Below are positions 4,950 through 21,711 of a DNA stretch of 21,711 nt, piece after piece. The notes under the pieces were generated by a model. The model ran no database searches. It was not told the origin of the DNA and saw only the letters and a program-made list of their open reading frames with translations. The translations under genes and the position numbers were made by a program. Numbering within the stretch: the stretch's first letter is position 1; each line of letters begins with the position of its first letter. This DNA comes from an uncultured virus (IMG/VR IMGVR_UViG_3300008107_000170). Its lineage: Duplodnaviria > Heunggongvirae > Uroviricota > Caudoviricetes. Where the stretch lies: IMG/VR virus record IMGVR_UViG_3300008107_000170; one strand, 5' to 3'.

Positions 4950-5316
4950 AGATTTTTCAAGCATCTTTGATTCCCCGCGCCCAATCCCAGAGGTGTCACC
5001 AAAAGTATTAGAGAACATACGCGGAAACGGCTTTAATAAGCGGTTTAACGACGCGTTACAGTTTAAGTTTCAAGAGGCCAAGTCCCTGCTACTTCAGAAG
5101 CACGAAGACTACGGGCCTACTAATATCTCAAACGCCCCAGGCGGCCCGCTAAACGGTTTACGCGTCCGTATCCACGACAAGAGTGCTCGCATCAATCACC
5201 TGCTAGACAGCGGCGTTGAGCCTAAAAACGAGAGTCTGCGTGATTCCTTCCTGGACATGGCAAATTATGCCATTATCGCCCTTATGGTAATTGACGGGGA
5301 CTGGCCAGAAAAATAA
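4936..5316 (+). CDS. DUF1599 / nucleotide-modification-associated domain 1 protein (MazG-like fold)
   Basis: KHEDYG, RIHDKSARI, ESLRDSFLDMANYAII signature; SD AAGGA. Confidence 0.85.
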   Translation: MSNYEDFSSIFDSPRPIPEVSPKVLENIRGNGFNKRFNDALQFKFQEAKSLLLQKHEDYGPTNISNAPGGPLNGLRVRIHDKSARINHLLDSGVEPKNESLRDSFLDMANYAIIALMVIDGDWPEK

Positions 5317-6197: not shown

Positions 6198-6440
6198 ATG
6201 CTAATCGATGAACTAAAGGCGTTAGCCAAATCAGCCGAGATAGAAGGCTGTGTTGTAGGTGTTTGGGCAGTAAGCCAAGACCAGGAGTTTCAAGAAGTTT
6301 TTACTTCCCTACGAAGTAAGCCAAATCTAAATCTGACCCAAACCCTAAATCTAATCAAGTCACACTACCCAGATATTCCATTTAAACGTACGGCATTTGT
6401 TGCCCACATGAGAGGAACATGCACGTGTCCGACAGCCTAG
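6198..6440 (+). CDS. Small putative Zn-binding / HTH-like protein
   Basis: C near the N-terminus plus H-x-RG-x-C-x-C at the C-terminus; SD AAGGAG. Confidence 0.7.
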   Translation: MLIDELKALAKSAEIEGCVVGVWAVSQDQEFQEVFTSLRSKPNLNLTQTLNLIKSHYPDIPFKRTAFVAHMRGTCTCPTA

Positions 6441-7523
6441 CCAAAGTTTTGAAGGAATTCCTAGAACAGGATTACTCCGCCCCACTGCCAATAATTAAAC
6501 AGGCAGAGAAGATGGTAATTAAACCGGCCAACATCACTAAGCCAAAAAAGAAAGACGGCTGGAAATTAGCCGCCCTGCTACCCGATACCCAAATCGGATA
6601 CCGCGTCTATGAGGACGGGTCAGTAATAGAGTTCCACGACGAAAAGGCCATTGAGATTGCGATGCAAATTGTGGCATACGCTAATGAGCAATTCGGCGTG
6701 GAAACAATCGTGAACCTAGGTGATACCATCGACCTGCCAGCGCAGAGCCGACACCATCAGGAAATCGCATTCCAAAACTCGACCAACCTAGCAATTCAGC
6801 GCGGCTATGAGTACCTAGCGCAACAGAGAGCAACTGTGCCTGACGCCGAGATTGTATTCCTAGAAGGAAACCACGATTGCCGTATCTATAAGTACTAGGC
6901 AGAAAACGCCCCAGCAGTAGTAAACATGCGCCGAGCAGATGNNNNNNNNNNNNNNNNNNNNNNNNNNNNNNNNNNNNNNNNACGCCCCAGCAGTAGTAAA
7001 CATGCGCCGAGCAGTTGATGATGCCGTCAGTGAGCCGTCATGGCCAGTTAACAGTTTGCCACACCTCCTACGCATGGATGAGCTGGGTATTGTATACGCC
7101 AGCGGTTACCCAGCCGGTGAGTACTGGCTAAACGAAAACCTACGATGCATCCACGGTGACAGGGTAAACTCGAGCGGCAGCACCGCGATGAAGTACATTA
7201 ATTCGAACCACCACGTATCTGTGGTCTATGGGCACATTCACCGAATTGAAATGCTGTACCACACAAACCACACGAGTACAGGCCCAGCCAGAAACGCGGC
7301 ATTCAGCCCTGGTTGTTTGTGCCGTGTTGATGGTTCAGTGCCAAGCGTCAAGGGCGGCGTGACCCCTAATGAAAAGCCAGTAAAATACTGGGAGAACTGG
7401 CAACAGGGTATCGGATTCGCCTGGTATAAGGACAGCGGAGAGTTTACCCTGCTATCGGTCCCCATTATTGATGACTGGGCAGTGTTTATGGGACGTGAGT
7501 TTAGGGCACAAGAACCTAAATAA
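6425..7523 (+). CDS. Calcineurin-like metallophosphoesterase (one gene, split by an assembly gap and an in-frame TAG)
   Basis: PDTQ, GDTID and GNHD lie before the gap; HGD and GHIH lie after it. A 36-nt sequence is duplicated on either side of 40 Ns. Confidence 0.85.
6906..7017. other. Scaffold gap with overlapping contig ends
   Basis: 6906-6941 matches 6982-7017 with 1 mismatch, separated by Ns at 6942-6981. Confidence 0.9.
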
Positions 7524-9836: not shown

Positions 9837-10538
9837 ATGGCAGTTAGAAAAACTTCAGCGACTAGGCGAGGAACCCCTAGCGAGTACGAGCGCCACCTAA
9901 TTGCCAAGGGTAACAAGAAAAAGCAAAATACTCTAGTTGCGTCCGAGGACCTCATTGAGAACGTGGACCCAAGCCGCCGTGGTCAGAGCCAGGAGGACAT
10001 TGAGTCATCGGCTAGGGCAGACTTTAGGGCTATGATGGCAAAAGAAGGCGACCCATTTGCGTCTAGAACACGACGAGTAGACTGGACACCTTACAAGCCA
10101 CAGGCTAGAGACATTGAAAAAGGCGTCGTCGAAGACCCTAAAGTATTTAAAGGCGATGACGCCCCACTACCTAGAGCCACATCACGACAGCTATCTGAAG
10201 CCGCAGCCGCCCAGAGGCGCCTAGATGTAGTCAAAAAGACTAGAGAAGGCGGCGGAAGAATTACAAAGAACACTACGTCTCAGGAAGAGAAAGACCGCTC
10301 AACTATTGGCGTTATATCCCAATACGGCGGCGGAAGTGGCCTAGACAGCCAGCGTTGTGCTACCCCGGGTTGTAACAACAACACCTCAGAGATTACTTGC
10401 ACAGACTGCACTGCTAAGGGAGACCCAGCGGGTAAGAATTACCGCGACGCCCCAGGTGAGCGTGCCGTTCAAAGAACCGCTGCAAAAGCCTCAAGAAATG
10501 CCGAGTTGCAGGAAGGATTAAGACAAGGCGCAGCCTAG
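9837..10538 (+). CDS. Charged low-complexity protein with C-terminal Cys cluster
   Basis: SD AAGGA; CATPGC...CTDC. Confidence 0.75.
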   Translation: MAVRKTSATRRGTPSEYERHLIAKGNKKKQNTLVASEDLIENVDPSRRGQSQEDIESSARADFRAMMAKEGDPFASRTRRVDWTPYKPQARDIEKGVVEDPKVFKGDDAPLPRATSRQLSEAAAAQRRLDVVKKTREGGGRITKNTTSQEEKDRSTIGVISQYGGGSGLDSQRCATPGCNNNTSEITCTDCTAKGDPAGKNYRDAPGERAVQRTAAKASRNAELQEGLRQGAA

Positions 10539-14430: not shown

Positions 14431-14479
14431 TTTTTGAGTGAAATGGCTCTCTCTCAAAAAGTTCTCTCTCTCTCTCTCT
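14431..14479. terminator. Possible terminator between convergent blocks plus (TC)8 tract
   Basis: TTTTTGAG (14431-14438) and CTCAAAAA (14453-14460) are inverted arms; TC repeat at 14463-14479. Confidence 0.4.
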
Positions 14480-14492
14480 TTTCCTTCCGGCA

Positions 14493-14915
14493 CTAATGCG
14501 TAGGCCAGTAGTATTCCAGATTGTCTGGCACTCCACTAAATAATTGCCCATAGAAAATAGGGTCTTTGCGAATTAAGTTGCTCTGGTGCGAGATATGTAG
14601 CGCCTGCTCTCCCCACCAGCTCGGCAGTTCTCTCGTCTGGTTCTCTAAGTTCTCCTGTATCTCTCGCAGGCGAGGCAGGGTTGTATCTCTGTATCCTCTC
14701 GCTATCCACTCCTCGCACATCGCTATGCCGTAGTCGGCTAGGACTATCTCACTCCCTCGCCACATCTTGACCGCAGGGTGGTTCTGCCAGCCGTGGCTTA
14801 TGCCTGTGAGGGTGTTGAGTATCTGTAATGTTTCTATCCGCTGCTTACCAAGCCTGCGATAGTCCAGCACTTGTGCTGTTTTTGCTAGGTTGGGATAGGG
14901 CAAGAAAGTCTGAAT
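14493..14915 (-). CDS. Pyrimidine dimer DNA glycosylase (DenV/MSMEG_6728 family), ATT start
   Basis: (M)QTFLPY...LDYRRLGKQRIETLQIL...GWQNHPAVKMWRG...HISHQSNLIRKDP...YYWP. ATT sits at the conserved Met position with SD AGAGG 8 nt upstream. Confidence 0.9.
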   Translation of the reverse strand: MQTFLPYPNLAKTAQVLDYRRLGKQRIETLQILNTLTGISHGWQNHPAVKMWRGSEIVLADYGIAMCEEWIARGYRDTTLPRLREIQENLENQTRELPSWWGEQALHISHQSNLIRKDPIFYGQLFSGVPDNLEYYWPTH

Positions 14916-14937
14916 GATAAATGCCTCTCTGCTATGA

Positions 14938-14985
14938 CCACTACATCTTGTGGTTAGCCTTAGCCTATACCACTACATCTAGTAG
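14938..14985. promoter_or_regulatory. Tandem NrdR boxes
   Basis: CCACTACATCTTGTGG (14938-14953) and CCACTACATCTAGTAG (14970-14985), 32 bp apart; both fit the NrdR consensus acaCwAtATaTwGtg. Confidence 0.75.
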
Positions 14986-14989
14986 TCAA
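14962..14989 (-). promoter_or_regulatory. Sigma-A/HrdB-type promoter of the glycosylase gene
   Basis: TTGACT-16 nt-TAGGCT on the minus strand; CGACACGCCG lies immediately upstream (14994-15003). Confidence 0.7.
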
Positions 14990-15009
14990 ACCTCGGCGTG
15001 TCGCAACCC

Positions 15010-15278
15010 GCGTGAATGTCGGTGGGTGGTTCGCAGGTGGCTCTGGGTTCTCTTGGCTAATACCTAATTCGGTATTTAATAACTCCGCCTTCGGTAGTTT
15101 CATAGCGCTAGGCTATTCCTGCCGCAGCAAGCATTTAAATACCTAATTACCTATTAATGCTCTCAAAGTTTAGGTGTATGCTTACCCTGCCGCAGCAAGA
15201 AAAATCACGCGTGATGTTCCACGCCCTCGTTTCAGGTGGCTATTAGTTTTCTTGGCTAATACCTAATTACCTATTTAA
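15010..15278. repeat. Interspersed direct repeats in a non-coding island
   Basis: TCTTGGCTAATACCTAATT at 15051 and 15250; AATACCTAATTACCTATT at 15138 and 15258; CCTGCCGCAGCAAG at 15118 and 15186; palindrome ATCACGCGTGAT at 15204-15215. Confidence 0.85.
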
Positions 15279-15282
15279 ATCG

Positions 15283-15309
15283 TTAGCACTCTTGCTCTAC
15301 GAGTGCCAG
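15283..15309. promoter_or_regulatory. CIRCE element (HrcA operator)
   Basis: TTAGCACTC-N9-GAGTGCCAG against the consensus TTAGCACTC-N9-GAGTGCTAA: 16/18 match with the exact spacer. Confidence 0.8.
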
Positions 15310-15350
15310 CCGGTGCTTACGCTTTGATGTATGACAGGGTAGCAGGTAGC

Positions 15351-15378
15351 AAAAAAGGCGGTCATTTCTGACCGCCTT
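15351..15378 (-). terminator. Rho-independent terminator of the minus-strand AAA/vWA operon
   Basis: AAGGCGGTCA-TTTC-TGACCGCCTT 10-bp stem; the A-run on + is a U tract on -. Confidence 0.88.
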
Positions 15379-15400
15379 AATGCTTTTTTGGTATTTAGTT

Positions 15401-15601
15401 CTAATTCATTTCCTCAACTACTGAGATAATCTCGTCAGAACCGCCGTTCGTTTTCTTGTAAAAGTCAGGCAGTTCCTCGGGGTCAATCATTCCCTCTTGG
15501 AGTTGCTCAATTAGTTCCTCAGCCTGCTCTTTGCTGTCGGCGCTAAAATAATACCAGCCGTATTCCTCGTTGCTAAATCCAACTCTAAACTGTTCGCTCA
15601 T
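15401..15601 (-). CDS. Small acidic protein (DpnD/PcfM-like pattern)
   Basis: F-x-V...A-x-S-x-EQA; ATGA overlap with the upstream gene. Confidence 0.75.
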   Translation of the reverse strand: MSEQFRVGFSNEEYGWYYFSADSKEQAEELIEQLQEGMIDPEELPDFYKKTNGGSDEIISVVEEMN

Positions 15602-15873
15602 TCTTTCACCCCCTCGTAGTTCTCGGTTATCCAGCCTGTCAAGGTTTCTGATAGAAACATAGCCTCGTCAGAGTTGTCGTAGCACTCTGCGACCTTTGCC
15701 ATTAGTTCCTGCGAGGGCGTGATTGCCTCGTAGTCGTCAGCGTATTCGTCTAGGTCAGGGTAAAACTCCAAGTCCTCTGCCGTAAAGAACGAGCCAATAA
15801 CAATCTCGTCAGGGTTCAGGTCTTTCAGTATCTTTATCCAATCTGATACTGTCTGCGGTTTGTAGTTATCCAT
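15598..15873 (-). CDS. Small acidic hypothetical protein
   Basis: TV-x-DWI-x2-L-x3-NPDE N-terminus; SD GAGGA. Confidence 0.8.
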   Translation of the reverse strand: MDNYKPQTVSDWIKILKDLNPDEIVIGSFFTAEDLEFYPDLDEYADDYEAITPSQELMAKVAECYDNSDEAMFLSETLTGWITENYEGVKE

Positions 15874-16086
15874 TTAGTTATCCTCGGTTTCCTCGTCAGA
15901 GTAGTCGGTCTGGTCATTTACCCAATCCGCTACGCTTTTGTATCGGTGTAGTGCTAGGTCAAGCATTGGTGAATGTTCGCCACTATACAAAGTGAGCAAG
16001 CACCAATCGCAACACTCGCTAACAGGGGTGCTTGTGGTAGCACCACAGTCTTTACAGCAGTAATCCTCTGCTAGTTTCTTGCCCAT
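15874..16086 (-). CDS. Small Cys-rich acidic protein
   Basis: CKDC...CDWC; SD GAGGT. Confidence 0.75.
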   Translation of the reverse strand: MGKKLAEDYCCKDCGATTSTPVSECCDWCLLTLYSGEHSPMLDLALHRYKSVADWVNDQTDYSDEETEDN

Positions 16087-16088
16087 TT

Positions 16089-18137
16089 TTACCTCGTTCC
16101 TTTGATGTTGTGGCGCACTACACCCTTAGCAACTTTAACAAGGTCGTTAGGGTTGCCGATAAATTGTAGGTCGTTAGCGCCGTGTTGTAGTTGTGCGATT
16201 TGAGCAGGGTCGTCTTTGATTTTGTCTATCCAATCGCCGTTCGCTAAAAATACGATAGAGGTAAATACTCCATTGTCACGAAGGGCTTTAATAGATTTAT
16301 CTGCGTTGCTATTAAATGCGCCGTCAGTCAGGACAAAGACCAACTTTGTCTTGGCAGTTGATAAGCCCATTATGCGCTCGGTTTCTTTAAGGGCGTAGGT
16401 CGGGTCAGTTCCACCACTACTTTCGACCATTAGCACCTCGGTTGCTTTTGCTTTGGTATCGCCGTCTATGAGGGTGCGTGATGTATCGCTGAATGTCATA
16501 ACCGACACTCTGCCGTTGATTTTCTCAACAGCCCTCTTGATTGCCCAAGCGCTACGGCAGACTGCGCCCATTTCAGACCACATAGAGCCTGACCTGTCCA
16601 TAAGGATACAAGCCTCTATGTTGTAGTCGTCATTACCCAATTCCCAACGATTAAATAATTTGTTGATGTCGTTGATGTCGGCGTTCATAGCCTTAGCAAC
16701 ATTGAGTTTGCCTGTCGGCTTGTCCTGTATCCATAGAGGGTCGCAGTCAATTCGTAGGCGTTCCAACTCTTGTGCGAATAGGCGACTTGCTGTGACCTCA
16801 CGCTGTTCAGGCGTAGCCCTCGTAAATCGAGATTGTCCTAAAATAGACTTGGTTGAGTTATCCCTAGCGATTGCGCCAACTGTGTCACGGACTTTCTGTT
16901 GGAGTTGCTTATCAGCCTTAGCCCTCTCGGCGACCTCTTGGGCTTTCTTGATAAGCGCCTCGCTGTGTTCGTTAAAGTGAGCGTGGTCTTTGTCAATCTC
17001 GCCTGTGTTCGTGCCGACCTGTGTGCCAGCCTCGGGGAATAGACCCTTTTCATTTTCCTCGGGGTCTTGTGAGTTGATTTCGTCTTGGGCTTTCTCGCTC
17101 TGGGGCTTGCCGTTCCTCATCATTGGGCGTTCGTGACAGCCGTGAGGGTCAGGCTTTCCTGCGCCCTCTGGTAATAGGGCTACTAAGAGTGTGATTAGTT
17201 GCTCTGCCCGAGTGTAATCCCGAGGGAAAACAAGTTTGCGATACTCTGCGGTCAGTTCGTAGATTGCCCTCGCCCTGTCCTCGCCGTGTTTCTGTGCGTA
17301 TAGCAGGGCTGATAAGGCTCGTAGTTCTCGGTCAAGATACATACGACCAGCAAGCAAAACAAAACTATCAGCGAGGGTGTCGGCGTGGTCGGCTATGTAA
17401 TCGCTGACTGTGGCGATTAGAAACGGCTTGACACTTGGATACTTGATTGTCAGCAGTCGCTCGGCTCGGCTGTCCTCTAAGATGTTAAAGGCAAGCAGTC
17501 GGCGTTCCTCAACTAGCGCCTCAACCTTAAACTCGTAGTCGTAGTCCTCTACCTGCTGTGTATCGTGATTAAACCTGCGACCTGTGTGCTTTTCAGTCTT
17601 GGTAGCCTTTTCCATTACCCACTTGCCAAGCGCTGTGCCGATACGAGGGGTGTAGAGCAGGTGCGCTAGTTCGTGATAGTTAAGTCCGTGTAGCGACCTG
17701 ACTGTATCATCATCAAGCGCCTTAATCTGCGTGGCGTTAAAGGTGACATTCTTGCCGTCATTGTGAGCAGGTGCGCTTGCCACATCATCATTTAAAAATA
17801 CCTGAATAGGCAAGTTAGTTAAAATGCGGTCTGCTTTCTGGTAAATAGAGCAAGCGCTATCAAGGCTGTTATTCCTGATGATTAGGTGCTGTCCGTCTTG
17901 CGACTGCCGAGCGTATTCCTCTCGGTTAAACTGCTCTTTGAGTTCGTAGTAGCGCATTGAGCGCTCTTGGTAAATCTCGGCGACCTCTCGCCCTGTTTCC
18001 TTTGCGACTTTCTGAATGGTTTCGGTGTCGAACCCTATGTCTGCCATTAGGTCAGCGTTCTCGTTCTGCCACTCATACCACCTGTGCCACGCTAGGTTGT
18101 GGTTATACTCACCTGTATTGCGAATGTGTTTAGCCAT
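16089..18137 (-). CDS. vWA-domain protein with N-terminal HExxH metallopeptidase-like domain (CobT-like MoxR partner)
   Basis: HELAH, FNILEDSRAE, MIDAS DRSGS...GGT...LTDG. Start moved to ATG 18137 (SD GAGG) to remove the overlap with the AAA gene. Confidence 0.88.
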   Translation of the reverse strand: MAKHIRNTGEYNHNLAWHRWYEWQNENADLMADIGFDTETIQKVAKETGREVAEIYQERSMRYYELKEQFNREEYARQSQDGQHLIIRNNSLDSACSIYQKADRILTNLPIQVFLNDDVASAPAHNDGKNVTFNATQIKALDDDTVRSLHGLNYHELAHLLYTPRIGTALGKWVMEKATKTEKHTGRRFNHDTQQVEDYDYEFKVEALVEERRLLAFNILEDSRAERLLTIKYPSVKPFLIATVSDYIADHADTLADSFVLLAGRMYLDRELRALSALLYAQKHGEDRARAIYELTAEYRKLVFPRDYTRAEQLITLLVALLPEGAGKPDPHGCHERPMMRNGKPQSEKAQDEINSQDPEENEKGLFPEAGTQVGTNTGEIDKDHAHFNEHSEALIKKAQEVAERAKADKQLQQKVRDTVGAIARDNSTKSILGQSRFTRATPEQREVTASRLFAQELERLRIDCDPLWIQDKPTGKLNVAKAMNADINDINKLFNRWELGNDDYNIEACILMDRSGSMWSEMGAVCRSAWAIKRAVEKINGRVSVMTFSDTSRTLIDGDTKAKATEVLMVESSGGTDPTYALKETERIMGLSTAKTKLVFVLTDGAFNSNADKSIKALRDNGVFTSIVFLANGDWIDKIKDDPAQIAQLQHGANDLQFIGNPNDLVKVAKGVVRHNIKGTR

Positions 18138-18141
18138 TTTA

Positions 18142-19533
18142 TTAAACCTCGTCACTCTGAATAGGTGCGGTTGCGATTTCGATACCAAAGTCGGTAGCGA
18201 TACCAGACTTGGCGGTGTCAAAGACCAACTTGACTGCCTCTCGTTCATCATCAGCAAAGCCGTTGATGTAAGAGTTAATAGCGTAGTTAAGCCCGACATT
18301 CTCAACATTCTTGGTAAATGCCATTAGACCTCGGGTAGAGATAGGGGTGTCAATCTCGCCCTTGTGCGCTTGGTCACGGAGTTTCTGCGCTACATCAAGC
18401 AGAGAGGCGTTCTTAATAAGTTTCTTTTCGATTGACTTGTCGTAGTCAAACTCCAACTTGTGAGCAAAGCGGTCTTTCCACGCTTGGTTCATTGGGCGAC
18501 TGCCTCGGTAGTTCGGGTTGTGGTCGCCGATTACAACTAGGTCAGGGTGCGCCTTGATTACCTCGCCACCATTTTCGAGCAGTTGGATTTCTCGCCTGTC
18601 GTCAAGCAAGCCAAATAGGACTGTGGTAATTCGCTCTGGCATAAAGTCAATTTCGTTGAGCAACAGCACTCCGCCGTGTCTTACCAAGTCAGTCACAGCG
18701 CCGTCTTGCCACTTAAAGACACCTGCGGTTTCGGTAGGTGTCCAAGCGCCGAATAGGTGACTTGGTTCTAAGCCGACATTGGCGCTGATGTTGTAGTAGC
18801 GGTATCCCCGAGCGCTTGCCCAAGCAAGCACACACATTGTCTTACCCGAGCCAGCGTGACCTCGGATTAGGACATTCTGCTTATTAGTCTTGGCAACATC
18901 AAGCAAGTCAAAGTCAGTAATCTTGCCGTCAATCTTGCGGTTGATGTAATCGTCAGCCCACTTTCGGTCTGGGATACGAGCAAGTTCGACCTGTGCGCTC
19001 TGTGCGGTTGGGGCAGGAATTGGCGCTTTGGCAGTTGGGGCAGGTGCTACCTCAACAGGCTTGCTAACCTCTGGGGCTAGGACAGGGTAAAAAGCGGTTT
19101 CCAATTCAGGACTGCCGATAGGGGCAAAGGTAATAGGATTGCGTAGTCTGCCGTCACTAATGTAGGCGTTCAGTTCAGGGTCGCCAGCCATTAGTTGCTC
19201 AACGACCTCGCCGACCATTTCAGCGTGAGCGATAGGAAACTGCTCATTGACAGGCTTGCTAACTACGGCAAGCAACTTGACGGCTAGGGCTGTGACATTC
19301 CCAATCTCTGCGCTTGCTACATCTCGGGCGCTGATTAGGACTGCCTTTGGTTCGTGAGTGATAAAGGTCATAGGTAGTTCATCAGTCGTCTTGACTGACT
19401 GCCAGCGCTGACCACGACCTCGCTGACCATTCGATAGGCGGTGAAACATAAGGACTTCGGTGTTTGTTGGAACGACCAGAGTTTGCTCTTTGCCATTCTC
19501 AACCTCGCTCTCAATCATTAGTGCTATGGACAT
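18142..19533 (-). CDS. MoxR-type AAA+ ATPase (CbbQ/NorQ/CobS-like)
   Basis: Walker A GHAGSGKT, FKWQDG, Walker B LLLNEID, NPNYRG, MNQAWKDRF, STRGL; extra N-terminal domain and Pro/Ala linker. Confidence 0.92.
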   Translation of the reverse strand: MSIALMIESEVENGKEQTLVVPTNTEVLMFHRLSNGQRGRGQRWQSVKTTDELPMTFITHEPKAVLISARDVASAEIGNVTALAVKLLAVVSKPVNEQFPIAHAEMVGEVVEQLMAGDPELNAYISDGRLRNPITFAPIGSPELETAFYPVLAPEVSKPVEVAPAPTAKAPIPAPTAQSAQVELARIPDRKWADDYINRKIDGKITDFDLLDVAKTNKQNVLIRGHAGSGKTMCVLAWASARGYRYYNISANVGLEPSHLFGAWTPTETAGVFKWQDGAVTDLVRHGGVLLLNEIDFMPERITTVLFGLLDDRREIQLLENGGEVIKAHPDLVVIGDHNPNYRGSRPMNQAWKDRFAHKLEFDYDKSIEKKLIKNASLLDVAQKLRDQAHKGEIDTPISTRGLMAFTKNVENVGLNYAINSYINGFADDEREAVKLVFDTAKSGIATDFGIEIATAPIQSDEV

Positions 19534-19584
19534 CTGCGGTAATCTCGCTTTCTTGTAGATAAATGGGGCGGTTGCCTCGGGTCA

Positions 19585-19607
19585 ATTCTAAGCACATCAC
19601 CCGACAA
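19585..19607 (-). promoter_or_regulatory. PafBC-dependent (RecA-NDp) type promoter
   Basis: Minus strand tTGTCGG-GTGATGTGCT(10 nt)-TAGAAT is an exact fit to TGTCGG-N10-TA-N3-T; about 50 nt upstream of the AAA start. Confidence 0.75.
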
Positions 19608-19618
19608 CTAAATAGGGG

Positions 19619-19648
19619 TTTACCCATTTGTTCACCTAAAATTAACCT
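19619..19648. promoter_or_regulatory. PHO-box-like 11-nt direct repeats (PhoP/RegX3 type)
   Basis: TTTACCC (19619), GTTCACC (19630), ATTAACC (19641), with 11-nt period. Confidence 0.45.
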
Positions 19649-19952
19649 AAGCCAAGCCACCTGCGAACGCTTGCGGAAAGAGTAAAAATGGGGCGCTTGG
19701 TCAATTCGACCACTAGCAACTAATAGAGATAGATAAACATAGAGAGTTCGTATTGGTTGTAGCAGAACAGGCTTGCCAATCTCTTAGTTGCTAATAAGCC
19801 TGCGAACCTAGCCCACATCTGGGCTTATCCCTGCGTGCTTGTCAGGCTTATTAGGCAGTAGCCTAAGTGGCTCTGGCTAATAGGCTTATTAGGCTCTTTC
19901 CGCGCTCGCGGTGGAGTAGTCTACTCTCTCTATGGCGGAAAGGGCAATAGCC

Positions 19953-19968
19953 GTTACCAAATCGTTAC
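19953..19968. promoter_or_regulatory. MtrA/GlnR-type box
   Basis: GTTAC-CAAATC-GTTAC (reverse strand GTAACGATTTGGTAAC). Confidence 0.55.
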
Positions 19969-19990
19969 AATGGCCGACTGGCCGGCGCGT

Positions 19991-20019
19991 AGCCTACCCT
20001 CTCTCTCTCCGGCTGTCAA
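19991..20019 (-). promoter_or_regulatory. Consensus sigma-A/HrdB promoter
   Basis: TTGACA-17 nt-TAGGCT on the minus strand; GACACGCC motif 3-4 nt upstream (20023-20031). Confidence 0.75.
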
Positions 20020-20036
20020 GGCCGACACGCCAGAGC

Positions 20037-20052
20037 GTTACCAAATTGTTAG
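20037..20052. promoter_or_regulatory. Second MtrA/GlnR-type box
   Basis: GTTAC-CAAATT-GTTAG, near-identical to 19953-19968. Confidence 0.55.
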
Positions 20053-20121
20053 GTTGGAAGCCTTTATGCCTATGCGTGCGAAGCGAGCAGAAACGGCTCT
20101 TAGGCATAAAGGCTTCCAACC
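20052..20121. repeat. Perfect 21-bp inverted repeat with 28-nt spacer
   Basis: GGTTGGAAGCCTTTATGCCTA (20052-20072) / TAGGCATAAAGGCTTCCAACC (20101-20121). Confidence 0.95.
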
Positions 20122-20153
20122 CAGCAAGTTTGATAAACTCGGGCGAAATTGGC

Positions 20154-20189
20154 GAACCCCAGAGCCGAAGGGGGGTGGCTCTGGGGTTC
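20154..20189. repeat. 13-bp inverted repeat (hairpin)
   Basis: GAACCCCAGAGCC / GGCTCTGGGGTTC with a 10-nt loop. Confidence 0.9.
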
Positions 20190-20230
20190 TAGGCAGGCGA
20201 CAGAAAGGAGTCAAGAGCACCTGCCGTTGG

Positions 20231-20268
20231 TGGTGTAGAGGAGAAAGTAGGGGAAAACCTCTACACCA
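20231..20268. repeat. 11-bp inverted repeat (hairpin)
   Basis: TGGTGTAGAGG / CCTCTACACCA with a 16-nt loop. Confidence 0.85.
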
Positions 20269-20274
20269 AGTCTA

Positions 20275-20400
20275 TTATCTCCTCTTTCTATCTCTATGGA
20301 TAGAGAGGCGTGTATGTAAGGTCATCAAGCCCCTAATAAGCCTGCCAACTGTGGCTATTAGGACTTCTAGGGGGGTCATTGGTCGTCTGTGCTTAGCCAT
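20275..20400 (-). CDS. Possible small basic protein (41 aa; not in ORF track)
   Basis: MAKHRRPMTPLEVLIATVGRLIRGLMTLHTRLSIHRDRKRR; SD AAGGAG; overlaps the upstream stop. Confidence 0.45.
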   Translation of the reverse strand: MAKHRRPMTPLEVLIATVGRLIRGLMTLHTRLSIHRDRKRR

Positions 20401-20566
20401 TTTCGTTATTCTCCTTGCTGTATACGACAAACTCGTCATCACTTGCTAGAAAGTCTAACTCAATTTCGTCATTGTGTAAAGCCTCCCAGACAGCCTCCTC
20501 GCTCTCAGCCTCAATTTCGGCTTGGTATTCCTCGGTGCGTGTCTGGCTTATTACGAACTTAGGCAT
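20393..20566 (-). CDS. Small acidic protein (57 aa, DpnD/PcfM-like; not in ORF track)
   Basis: MPKFVISQTRTEEYQAEIEAESEEAVWEAL...; TAATG-coupled. Confidence 0.8.
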   Translation of the reverse strand: MPKFVISQTRTEEYQAEIEAESEEAVWEALHNDEIELDFLASDDEFVVYSKENNENG

Positions 20567-21038: not shown

Positions 21039-21254
21039 CTATGTCTTTGATAAGGCTTCTAACTTCTTTGTTGATTTCGGTGTGGAACTGAACCTCAACG
21101 CCCCCATAAAAGAGGACATTACAGGTGGGTGCTTACAAGGCTTATCCTCCTCTGGGTCGCAATCCTCACAAAACACCAGCCCCTGCCACAAGAACCCTCC
21201 CTCGTCAAGGTCGAACTCTTGCTTACAGTCGGCGCAAATAGGCTTATTTGCCAT
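21039..21254 (-). CDS. Small zinc-finger protein
   Basis: CADC...FCEDC; ATG 21254 is TAATG-coupled; SD GAGGAG. Confidence 0.7.
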   Translation of the reverse strand: MANKPICADCKQEFDLDEGGFLWQGLVFCEDCDPEEDKPCKHPPVMSSFMGALRFSSTPKSTKKLEALSKT

Positions 21255-21658
21255 TATGACCACTCCTCGTCATCATCATCAGGCTCGTCATCAAGGTCAT
21301 TACAGACACCAGCACAGCGCTTTTCACCGCAGTCCTCGCACTCCTCCTCGTAGCCCTGCTCAATAAGGCTAGTAAAGCCCTCGTTTGGGTCTTTACCCTC
21401 CTCAACAGTTTCTACGGCAGACACAAAGCGGAGCATACAAGACTGGTCATACCACTTCTTGATTGTGTCCAACATCTGCCCAGAGGTCATCTGGTCTTTG
21501 GTAATAAGGCTATCTGGGTCATTTTCATCACCATAGCCGTAGCCACGCATAGCCTCTACCTGTGCGCTGTCCATCAGCACATAGATTTTGTGGCAGGTAT
21601 CCCAAGCGATAGCCTTAGCGTCTGCTAGATAGAACTCTACATCTGTAAAATCAGGCAT
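21254..21658 (-). CDS. Acidic hypothetical protein with C-terminal Cys cluster
   Basis: SD AGAAAGGA; CEDC-x4-C-x3-C and a D/E-rich tail. Confidence 0.85.
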   Translation of the reverse strand: MPDFTDVEFYLADAKAIAWDTCHKIYVLMDSAQVEAMRGYGYGDENDPDSLITKDQMTSGQMLDTIKKWYDQSCMLRFVSAVETVEEGKDPNEGFTSLIEQGYEEECEDCGEKRCAGVCNDLDDEPDDDDEEWS

Positions 21659-21711
21659 TTAGTTTTCCTTTCTGTTGCCTTATAGATACGACCTTACACC
21701 GCCTCTCTCTC

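Follow-up and report, generated by a model that had tools for sequence, protein, structure and literature searches.

Candidate host-sensor-linked promoters in two non-coding islands of an uncultured freshwater actinobacterial phage

A stretch of 21,711 nucleotides (nt) from an uncultured virus of the Caudoviricetes (IMG/VR record IMGVR_UViG_3300008107_000170; the whole stretch is referred to here as the window) contains two gene-free islands, island 1 (14916-15400) and island 2 (19534-20274), which flank an operon for a CobS-like ATPase and a vWA protein. These islands had been described in an original prediction as a regulator sponge, in which operators for several host regulators would titrate host repressors as the phage DNA amplifies. 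Our analysis favours a different reading, to which we give a probability of roughly 0.6: both islands would be conserved cis-regulatory regions of a freshwater actinobacterial phage rather than decoys, and would contain phage promoters linked to host sensors. Two sites carry this reading, namely a tandem NrdR operator lying over the predicted promoter of a denV-like gene for a pyrimidine dimer DNA glycosylase, and a PafBC-type promoter in front of cobS (Table 1).

The comparisons were made with the window's own IMG/VR contig (L001) and 23 relatives (L002 to L024), which were recovered via the CobS-like protein, while whole-record searches covered a set of five phage records, three of which are 97-100% complete; G005 is a complete relative. 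The sole match in a nucleotide search of the phage records with the window was 122 bp within cobS. Metagenomes from freshwater and lakes contain the window DNA. All five phage records encode WhiB (PF02467), the window open reading frame (ORF) 2268-2651 being one such gene, and the closest cultured kin are Gordonia and Brevibacterium phages, with an ATPase identity of 43-46%; the host is therefore taken to be actinobacterial. The islands are indeed non-coding, as first proposed, in that no ORF in either of them has a Pfam or PHROG match, and a tRNA scan of the window found 0 genes.

The NrdR site rule, as set out in a passage of PMC13584703, asks for a pair of 16-bp boxes, each partially palindromic, with a 15-16-bp linker between them and highly conserved C4, A6, A8, T9, T11, and G13; according to the same paper, heterologous boxes are bound by S. 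coelicolor NrdR. All six of these positions are present in both boxes of the window, L010, L002, and L017. The upstream box occupies the spacer of the predicted denV promoter and touches its -35 element, the downstream box overlies the predicted start, and the denV coding sequence lies about 40 nt beyond. Pairs of boxes with at most three mismatches to the 16-mer were confined to the region before denV in five loci (the window, L001, L002, L017, and L010), with 0 in the other 20 loci; among the whole phage records, they occur in two of the five, solely at the denV site, and in none of the three that are 97-100% complete. In L010, where the DenV identity is 65%, two perfect boxes with a 32-bp phasing accompany TTGACC-16-TATGCT in the same register while the flanks have diverged, and the operator is also retained in L002 and L017 despite flank divergence. 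The boxes are present in all four loci in which denV is transcribed separately and nowhere else: they are missing from L003, where denV directly abuts small genes with no gap, and from the distant denV relatives L032 to L035, where denV lies within operons or under a different promoter.

The gene downstream of the boxes belongs to the Pyr_excise family (PF03013) and is not a ribonucleotide reductase (RNR) gene. The RNR large subunit (PF02867) was not found in the five phage records, and denV is therefore the only candidate target of NrdR. Judged by these features, the operator is real and its cognate gene would be denV, with NrdR itself as the putative ligand. This specificity belongs to the full 16-mers only, since the published loose NrdR regular expression is non-discriminating (eight window matches against a simulation mean of 2.6). 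As a positive control, a pattern of one strict box plus a degenerate partner recovered 17 bacterial loci from several phyla, with RNR genes adjoining 10 of the 17 in a count for which 46 of 62 long frames were scanned; a pattern of two strict boxes gave 0 matches in bacterial genome contigs. Host inference from the 17 loci, which span many phyla, was dropped. A tandem NrdR-type pair also occurs at positions 1501-1545 of L045, a Streptomyces panacea contig, beside genes for a phage-type integrase and a dCMP/cytidine deaminase and without an RNR gene; it may represent a further mobile-element use of NrdR control.

The start codon of denV appears to be a non-canonical ATH, and the true start in the window is likely to be the ATT at 14915 rather than the listed TTG at 14903. 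The peptide begins with MQTFLPY in L032 and L034, where the start is ATG, and the codon before QTFLPY is ATT in the window, ATA in L002, and ATC in L010. This ATH codon (window 14901-14918; L002 ~5063-5080; L010 ~10074-10091) lies 8-10 nt 3' of a Shine-Dalgarno-like GAGAGG, and the L010 codon aligned with the listed TTG is TTA, which is no start codon.

The second site follows the PafBC consensus, which is given in a passage of PMC8635444 as tGTCgg(N10)tA(N3)T; its 5' part, in which GTC is invariant, falls at -23 to -28, and it has a canonical -10 element but no -35 element. The hexamer located 17 nt upstream of the -10 TAGAAT in the window is ATTTAG, a 1/6 match to TTGACA, so the window promoter is likewise without a -35. 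The decisive support for this predicted promoter comes from its conservation across relatives: of 20 distinct upstream regions, 16 have GTC-N12-TAnnnT at 72-79 nt before the cobS ATG, against a background of 0.036 per 120 nt, and in 15 of those 16 the GTC is preceded by T. The N10 sequence varies freely, and only the GTC and the -10 are common to the relatives. The other four window matches to TGTC-N12-TAnnnT are antisense within plus-strand genes. No WYL-domain protein was found in the five phage records. The suggestion that the sites tune phage genes to the state of the host has therefore fared better than the sponge: NrdR boxes lie over the denV core promoter, where L002, L017, and L010 keep them, and the PafBC-type element stands before cobS in most relatives.

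Upstream of this promoter, the order of the elements of island 2 is identical in all 10 relatives with sufficient upstream sequence. On the minus strand, a conserved small ORF (20275-20442) is followed by the hairpins hp0 and hp1, the GC-rich, terminator-like hp2, and the long hp3, and then by box-promoter units, the block GGCTACTGCCTAATAAGCC..GCAGGGATAAGCCCAGAT, a CTCTCTAT-rich stretch, direct repeats with an 11-12-bp phasing, and the PafBC-type promoter itself. Within the block, GGCTACTGCC precedes cobS both in the window and in 19 of the 23 relatives L002-L024; inspection by eye found no consistent covarying stem for this block.

The direct-repeat units closest to cobS, which were first likened to a PHO box, have the minus-strand sequence GGTTAAT/GGTGAAC/GGTAAAC and come shortly before the PafBC-type promoter; relatives carry two to three of these units, at 93-107 nt upstream of cobS. 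Further upstream, each box-promoter unit combines a direct-repeat box, first described as an MtrA/GlnR-type box, with a sigma-A-type promoter, and the -35/-10 spacers of both units, like those of all ten relatives examined, are (GA)n-rich. Tracts of (GA)n/(CT)n are a recurring feature of the intergenic DNA (14440-14482, 19925-19935, and 19997-20009). The box RTAACRATNNNRTAAC, when one mismatch is allowed, has 35 matches in 15.9 kb upstream of cobS versus 17 in 264 kb elsewhere, and most of the inspected matches elsewhere are again intergenic modules made of a hairpin arm and a box. The MtrA consensus of C. glutamicum is described in a passage of PMC3353115 as (A/G)TAACAATttn(A/G)TAACAAT, that is, two 8-bp direct repeats with a 3-bp linker, and activating sites lie just upstream of the -35. 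The boxes of the window deviate from it at 3 and 4 of the 16 specified positions; their geometry and RTAAC core are kept in relatives. Since the literal MtrA consensus is at background (six window matches with up to four mismatches versus 4.9 expected) and no OmpR-family protein is encoded in the five phage records, the direct-repeat boxes may be read either by a response regulator of the host or by a phage protein that has escaped recognition. The nearest known precedent for a phage using a host response regulator is that of the cyanophage pho boxes, which host PhoB drives.

A second copy of GACACGCC lies at 20024-20031 on the plus strand, 4 nt upstream of the -35 of the P1 promoter, the first being the one near denV. 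In WhiA/WhiB-activated promoters, a GACAC motif stands before the -35, in either orientation and with variable spacing (PMC10243135). The placement of the two copies is compatible with this rule, though their number is at chance, as 11 of 100 shuffles contained at least two. The motif types listed in the original prediction are all present, but the MtrA consensus, GACACGCC, and the PafBC pattern with one mismatch do not exceed chance.

Covariation is seen in the hairpins of island 2. RNAalifold, applied to 12 sequences, predicted 41 pairs, 17 of them with compensatory change, and hp1 covaries in seven of its eight pairs. In the minus-strand orientation, hp1 shows four pairs of the G-U type and none of the C-A type, a pattern in keeping with RNA from the transcribed strand. 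Its loop always contains CTTTCTGT (in the window and 12 loci). In the window, the loop is CCTTTCTGT, which is the exact complement of the ACAGAAAGG (21666-21674) that precedes the ATG of the ORF 21254-21658, and it is nearly complementary to the (C)AGAAAG found before cobS in most relatives; a further likeness is to the tail at the 3' end of actinobacterial 16S rRNA. A reasonable idea is that hp1 may give rise to a small RNA derived from the 3' end, or act as an anti-Shine-Dalgarno element in cis.

The hairpin hp3 belongs to a family repeated across the genome. Its arm, TTGTTGRGTTGG, has 13+14 copies in G005 versus 1+0 for the reversed control, and these copies are mostly inverted pairs 55-82 nt apart, which occur every 0.6-0.9 kb in the small-gene region upstream of cobS (contig 37.3-46.2 kb); several of the inspected hairpins of this family in G005 are followed by a direct-repeat box. 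An Rfam search (E up to 1) gave two sub-threshold matches to microRNA families on 20034-20141, which were judged to be spurious hairpin likeness. A 32-amino-acid ORF after CCCAGATG was rejected as coding, given that L003 stops after one codon.

In island 1, besides the NrdR operator, there is a repeat that resembles CIRCE (the inverted repeat by which chaperone expression is controlled), the consensus of which is TTAGCACTC-N9-GAGTGCTAA (PMC13435591). Among 1000 Markov simulations of the window, one produced a site of equal quality. In the five phage records, CIRCE-like sites with at most three mismatches are limited to the window site and the homologous place in L010, where the left arm is unchanged, the spacer is different, and all three mismatches fall in the right arm (15/18). 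In the closest relatives, L002 and L017, the homologue is CTCGCACTC..GAGTGCCAG, with four mismatches (14/18) and the loss of the flanking TTA/TAA positions; a level of 3-4 mismatches is background, as seen from four unrelated CIRCE-like sites of this kind elsewhere in the loci. The site is absent from the three 97-100% complete relatives, and no chaperone gene was found among the window ORFs scanned. Conservation among relatives, which the original prediction had proposed to check, holds for the NrdR operator at denV, the PafBC-type promoter, and the direct repeats, but only in part for the CIRCE-like repeat. The claim of that prediction that sites lack a cognate gene fails for NrdR, with the denV promoter, and for PafBC, with the cobS promoter.

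The CIRCE-like repeat sits between the bidirectional terminator and one AT-rich quasi-palindrome. It could serve as a site for HrcA, form a hairpin in RNA, or belong to a short RNA of the plus strand. On the plus strand, the repeat, a 45-nt linker, and the terminator (15283-15392) could make an RNA of ~100 nt. The tail TTAATGCTTT, 3' of the terminator stem, is invariant in L002 and L010, though the L010 stem covaries. Two of the three AT-rich quasi-palindromes lie within a 46-nt direct repeat, and kindred AATAC..GTATT palindromes are found in L002 and L010. The GTTCGCAGGTGGCT of the conserved block next to them reappears inverted at 19655-19668. The island-1 TGTCGGTG was considered as a PafBC promoter and rejected, TAnnnT being missing at N10 in the window, L002, and L010.

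Table 1. Features of the two islands and their surroundings (positions in the window; a dot marks features given without strand).
Feature	Position	Strand	Details
Tandem NrdR operator	14938..14985	.	box CCACTACATCTTGTGG 14938-14953, 16-bp linker, box CCACTACATCTAGTAG 14970-14985
denV promoter (predicted)	14962..14989	-	-35 TTGACT 14989-14984, 16-nt spacer, -10 TAGGCT 14967-14962; by eye
denV-like pyrimidine dimer DNA glycosylase	14493..14915	-	Pfam PF03013, E 6e-20
PafBC-type promoter TGTCGG-N10-TAGAAT (TGTCGGGTGATGTGCTTAGAAT)	19585..19606	-	perfect match; TGTCGG at 19606-19601; 72 nt upstream of cobS ATG
Three direct-repeat units (PHO-like)	19618..19650	.	GTTTACC/GTTCACC/ATTAACC starting at 19618, 19630, 19641; 11-12-bp phasing
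Most conserved non-coding block GGCTACTGCCTAATAAGCC..GCAGGGATAAGCCCAGAT	19793..19870	-	begins with -10-like TAGGCT 19865-19860
Box-promoter unit A	19968-19918	-	box GTAACGATTTGGTAAC 19968-19953, TTGCCC 19947-19942, 18-nt spacer, TAGACT 19923-19918
Box-promoter unit B	20052-19991	-	box CTAACAATTTGGTAAC 20052-20037, GGCGTGTC, TTGACA 20019-20014, 17-nt spacer, TAGGCT 19996-19991
Long hairpin hp3	20028..20145	.	inverted TTGTTGRGTTGG pair; compensatory pairs
Three hairpins after small ORF 20275-20442	20154..20268	-	hp0 20231-20268, hp1 20193-20225, hp2 20154-20189
GACACGCC	14995..15002	-	6 nt upstream of denV -35; kept in L002, L017, not L010
Conserved block ATGTCGGTGGG..TTCGCAGGTGGCT	15014..15045	+	kept in L002, L010; PafBC-like -26 hexamer
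Three AT-rich quasi-palindromes AATACCTAATT(A/C)(C/G)(C/G)TATT	15058-15079, 15135-15156, 15257-15280	.	repeat search
CIRCE-like inverted repeat TTAGCACTC-N9-GAGTGCCAG	15283..15309	.	16/18 positions; left arm perfect, right 7/9
Bidirectional terminator hairpin	15355..15378	.	3' end of cobS-vWA-small-ORF operon; terminator scan; stem covaries in L010
tgt/DpdA-like gene	ends 14414	+	left of denV
cobS-vWA operon	15401..19533	-	AAA_5 (CobS-like) ATPase 18142-19533, vWA protein 16089-18308, three small ORFs 15401-16086
Small minus-strand ORFs	right of 20275	-	beyond island 2

According to the favoured reading, the bidirectional terminator of island 1 would close the cobS-vWA operon, and the NrdR-overlaid promoter would serve the separately transcribed denV. 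Since the tandem NrdR operator overlies this promoter, host NrdR loaded with dATP/ATP should switch denV off, and denV would be released when the pools of deoxynucleoside triphosphates (dNTPs) drop, for example, during phage DNA synthesis. Island 2 would comprise, in the order of transcription, the 3'-end hairpins of upstream genes, a member of the hairpin family, two to three sigma-A-type promoters in tandem, each having in front of it a clade-specific direct-repeat box with an 11-bp phasing, and the PafBC-type promoter, which would couple the cobS-vWA operon to the host DNA-damage activator that is triggered by single-stranded DNA. We infer the binding of host NrdR and PafBC, the direction of their effects, and the readers of the direct-repeat boxes, the AT-rich palindromes, and the CIRCE-like repeat from sequence. 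A more ambitious version, which we put forward only tentatively, is that the phage clade may wire its auxiliary genes to several host sensors (denV to NrdR, cobS-vWA to PafBC, and further promoters perhaps to a response regulator and HrcA), such that their expression would be timed by the dNTP pool, DNA damage, and folding load instead of a phage cascade; in addition, the anti-Shine-Dalgarno loop might act as a small RNA masking ACAGAAAGG ribosome-binding sites.

Several points weigh against the favoured reading. The promoters were identified by eye, and the simple promoter scan did not list them; in the case of the denV promoter, this is because the scan demands a different -10 score. (The counts from this promoter/terminator scan were at shuffle level, and its sole relevant item was the terminator.) The PafBC pattern is low-information, with four window matches at up to one mismatch versus 4.09 expected, and a single match in the window therefore proves little alone; the motif is missing in 4 of the 20 relatives (L008, L010, L022, and L024), and a phage factor could read the same -26 element. 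The cultured phages GMA6 and Cantare are without the islands or the PafBC-type motif, having only a gap of 50-65 nt before the ATPase gene. It is not obvious what physiological sense the repression of a UV-repair gene by NrdR would make. No target could be assigned to the CIRCE-like site, the AT-rich palindromes, or the ATGTCGGTGGG block. Finally, the presence of NrdR, PafBC, and HrcA in the host genome is an assumption from the phylum.

An alternative would be regulation that is purely autonomous to the phage, with phage proteins or promoter/terminator elements doing the work and the likeness to host operators being coincidental or vestigial; one possibility here is that an NrdR-controlled promoter was captured from a host with, or next to, denV. 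The majority of the conserved elements are clade-specific repeats, such as the direct-repeat box, found in many intergenic modules, and the 13+14 hp3 arms of G005; this speaks for such autonomy, as do the AT-rich palindromes, the background level of the literal MtrA consensus, the failure of GACACGCC to rise above chance, and the presence of WhiB in all five phage records alongside many unannotated small ORFs. However, the NrdR pair has every defining sequence feature of the universal operator and is intact while its flanks diverge, the phage records searched contain no NrdR-like target and no OmpR-family or WYL protein, and the PafBC geometry is kept in 16 of 20 relatives. On balance, we consider purely autonomous regulation to be rather unlikely, though it has to be taken seriously.

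It is improbable that the islands act at the level of DNA, as a replication origin or a packaging region. Direct repeats with an 11-bp phasing (which could be iterons), AT-rich palindromes, long inverted repeats that could form cruciforms, and (GA)n tracts are all present, and tandem promoters beside such repeats recall transcription-activated origins. Yet, the G-U-type pairs of hp1, without C-A pairs, are in keeping with RNA from the transcribed strand, the boxes and hairpins are found some ten times between small genes and not at a single place, and neither island is adjoined by a gene for a replication initiator or a terminase.

The least probable explanation, and by our estimate a very improbable one, is the sponge, in which operators without cognate genes would titrate host NrdR, HrcA, and other regulators as the phage DNA amplifies and would thereby derepress dNTP synthesis and chaperonins: although the CIRCE-like site (16/18; 1/1000 simulations) has no chaperone gene or evident target nearby, phages without an RNR large subunit would profit from derepressed host RNR, and a single operator multiplied by replication might in principle compete with the few host operators, each genome has a single NrdR operator and a single CIRCE-like site, with no arrays of sites, both are missing from the three 97-100% complete relatives, the CIRCE-like arms are down to 14/18 in the closest relative, the NrdR boxes are confined to loci with a separate denV promoter and lie exactly over the -35, -10, and start region, and the two best-supported sites are tied to phage genes in promoter register, which cis-regulation predicts and titration does not require. 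Titration is possible as a by-product of phage DNA amplification.

Two further observations concern other parts of the window. A perfect 59-bp tandem duplication at 20510-20627 copies the start of the small minus-strand ORF 20393-20566 and yields an additional short ORF; it is either a genuine duplication or an assembly artefact. On the plus strand, the ORFs 6419-6898 and 6939-7523 correspond to successive parts of one metallophosphoesterase family, phrog_20266 (profile positions 137-270 and 275-446), and this gene (6419-7523) may be interrupted by a split or a frameshift.

That phages make use of regulators of their hosts is known, with the LexA sites in prophages and the pho boxes in cyanophages as examples. 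The use of host regulators by phages is therefore not new in itself, while a phage-borne NrdR operator, in particular one on a non-RNR gene, and a phage promoter of the PafBC type, in particular one on a phage operon, were not found in a literature search judged by title and abstract. If functional, these sites would provide handles on how uncultured freshwater actinophages sense the dNTP status and DNA damage of their hosts, and on the purpose of the widespread and still unexplained phage cobS/vWA pair; they would also imply that the NrdR regulon reaches beyond nucleotide reduction. Setting aside the unsupported decoy idea spares a costly experiment.

Among known systems, the stoperators of cluster A mycobacteriophages are repeated intergenic regulatory motifs of actinobacteriophages. 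The hp3 family likewise consists of short motifs and hairpins repeated between many genes within one region of the genome, but its sequences differ from those of stoperators, and its copies are mostly inverted pairs that form long hairpins. The CIRCE/HrcA operators of groES/groEL and hrcA-dnaJ adjoin chaperone genes, whereas the window repeat is without a chaperone gene or a demonstrated promoter. The direct-repeat boxes are like the MtrA/PHO sites of the OmpR/PhoB family, as described in part of PMC3353115, in their 11-bp period, RTAAC core, and position 5' of the -35; unlike MtrA sites, they constitute a promoter module repeated throughout a phage clade. The PafBC-type promoter has the same bipartite motif, with a -10 and no -35, as the mycobacterial PafBC 'sigma adaptation' promoters (e.g., that of recA) described in a passage of PMC8635444; unlike these, it heads a phage operon, that of the cobS-like ATPase and the vWA protein, the PafBC dependence of which is putative. 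Lastly, the NrdR operator has the layout of the operators of bacterial RNR operons (nrdAB and nrdRJ in S. coelicolor; nrdAB, nrdHIEF, and nrdDG in E. coli), with the same boxes, linker, and six positions over a core promoter, as given in a passage of PMC13584703; unlike the operators of S. coelicolor and E. coli, it is in a phage, where it stands before a gene for a pyrimidine-dimer glycosylase instead of one for RNR.

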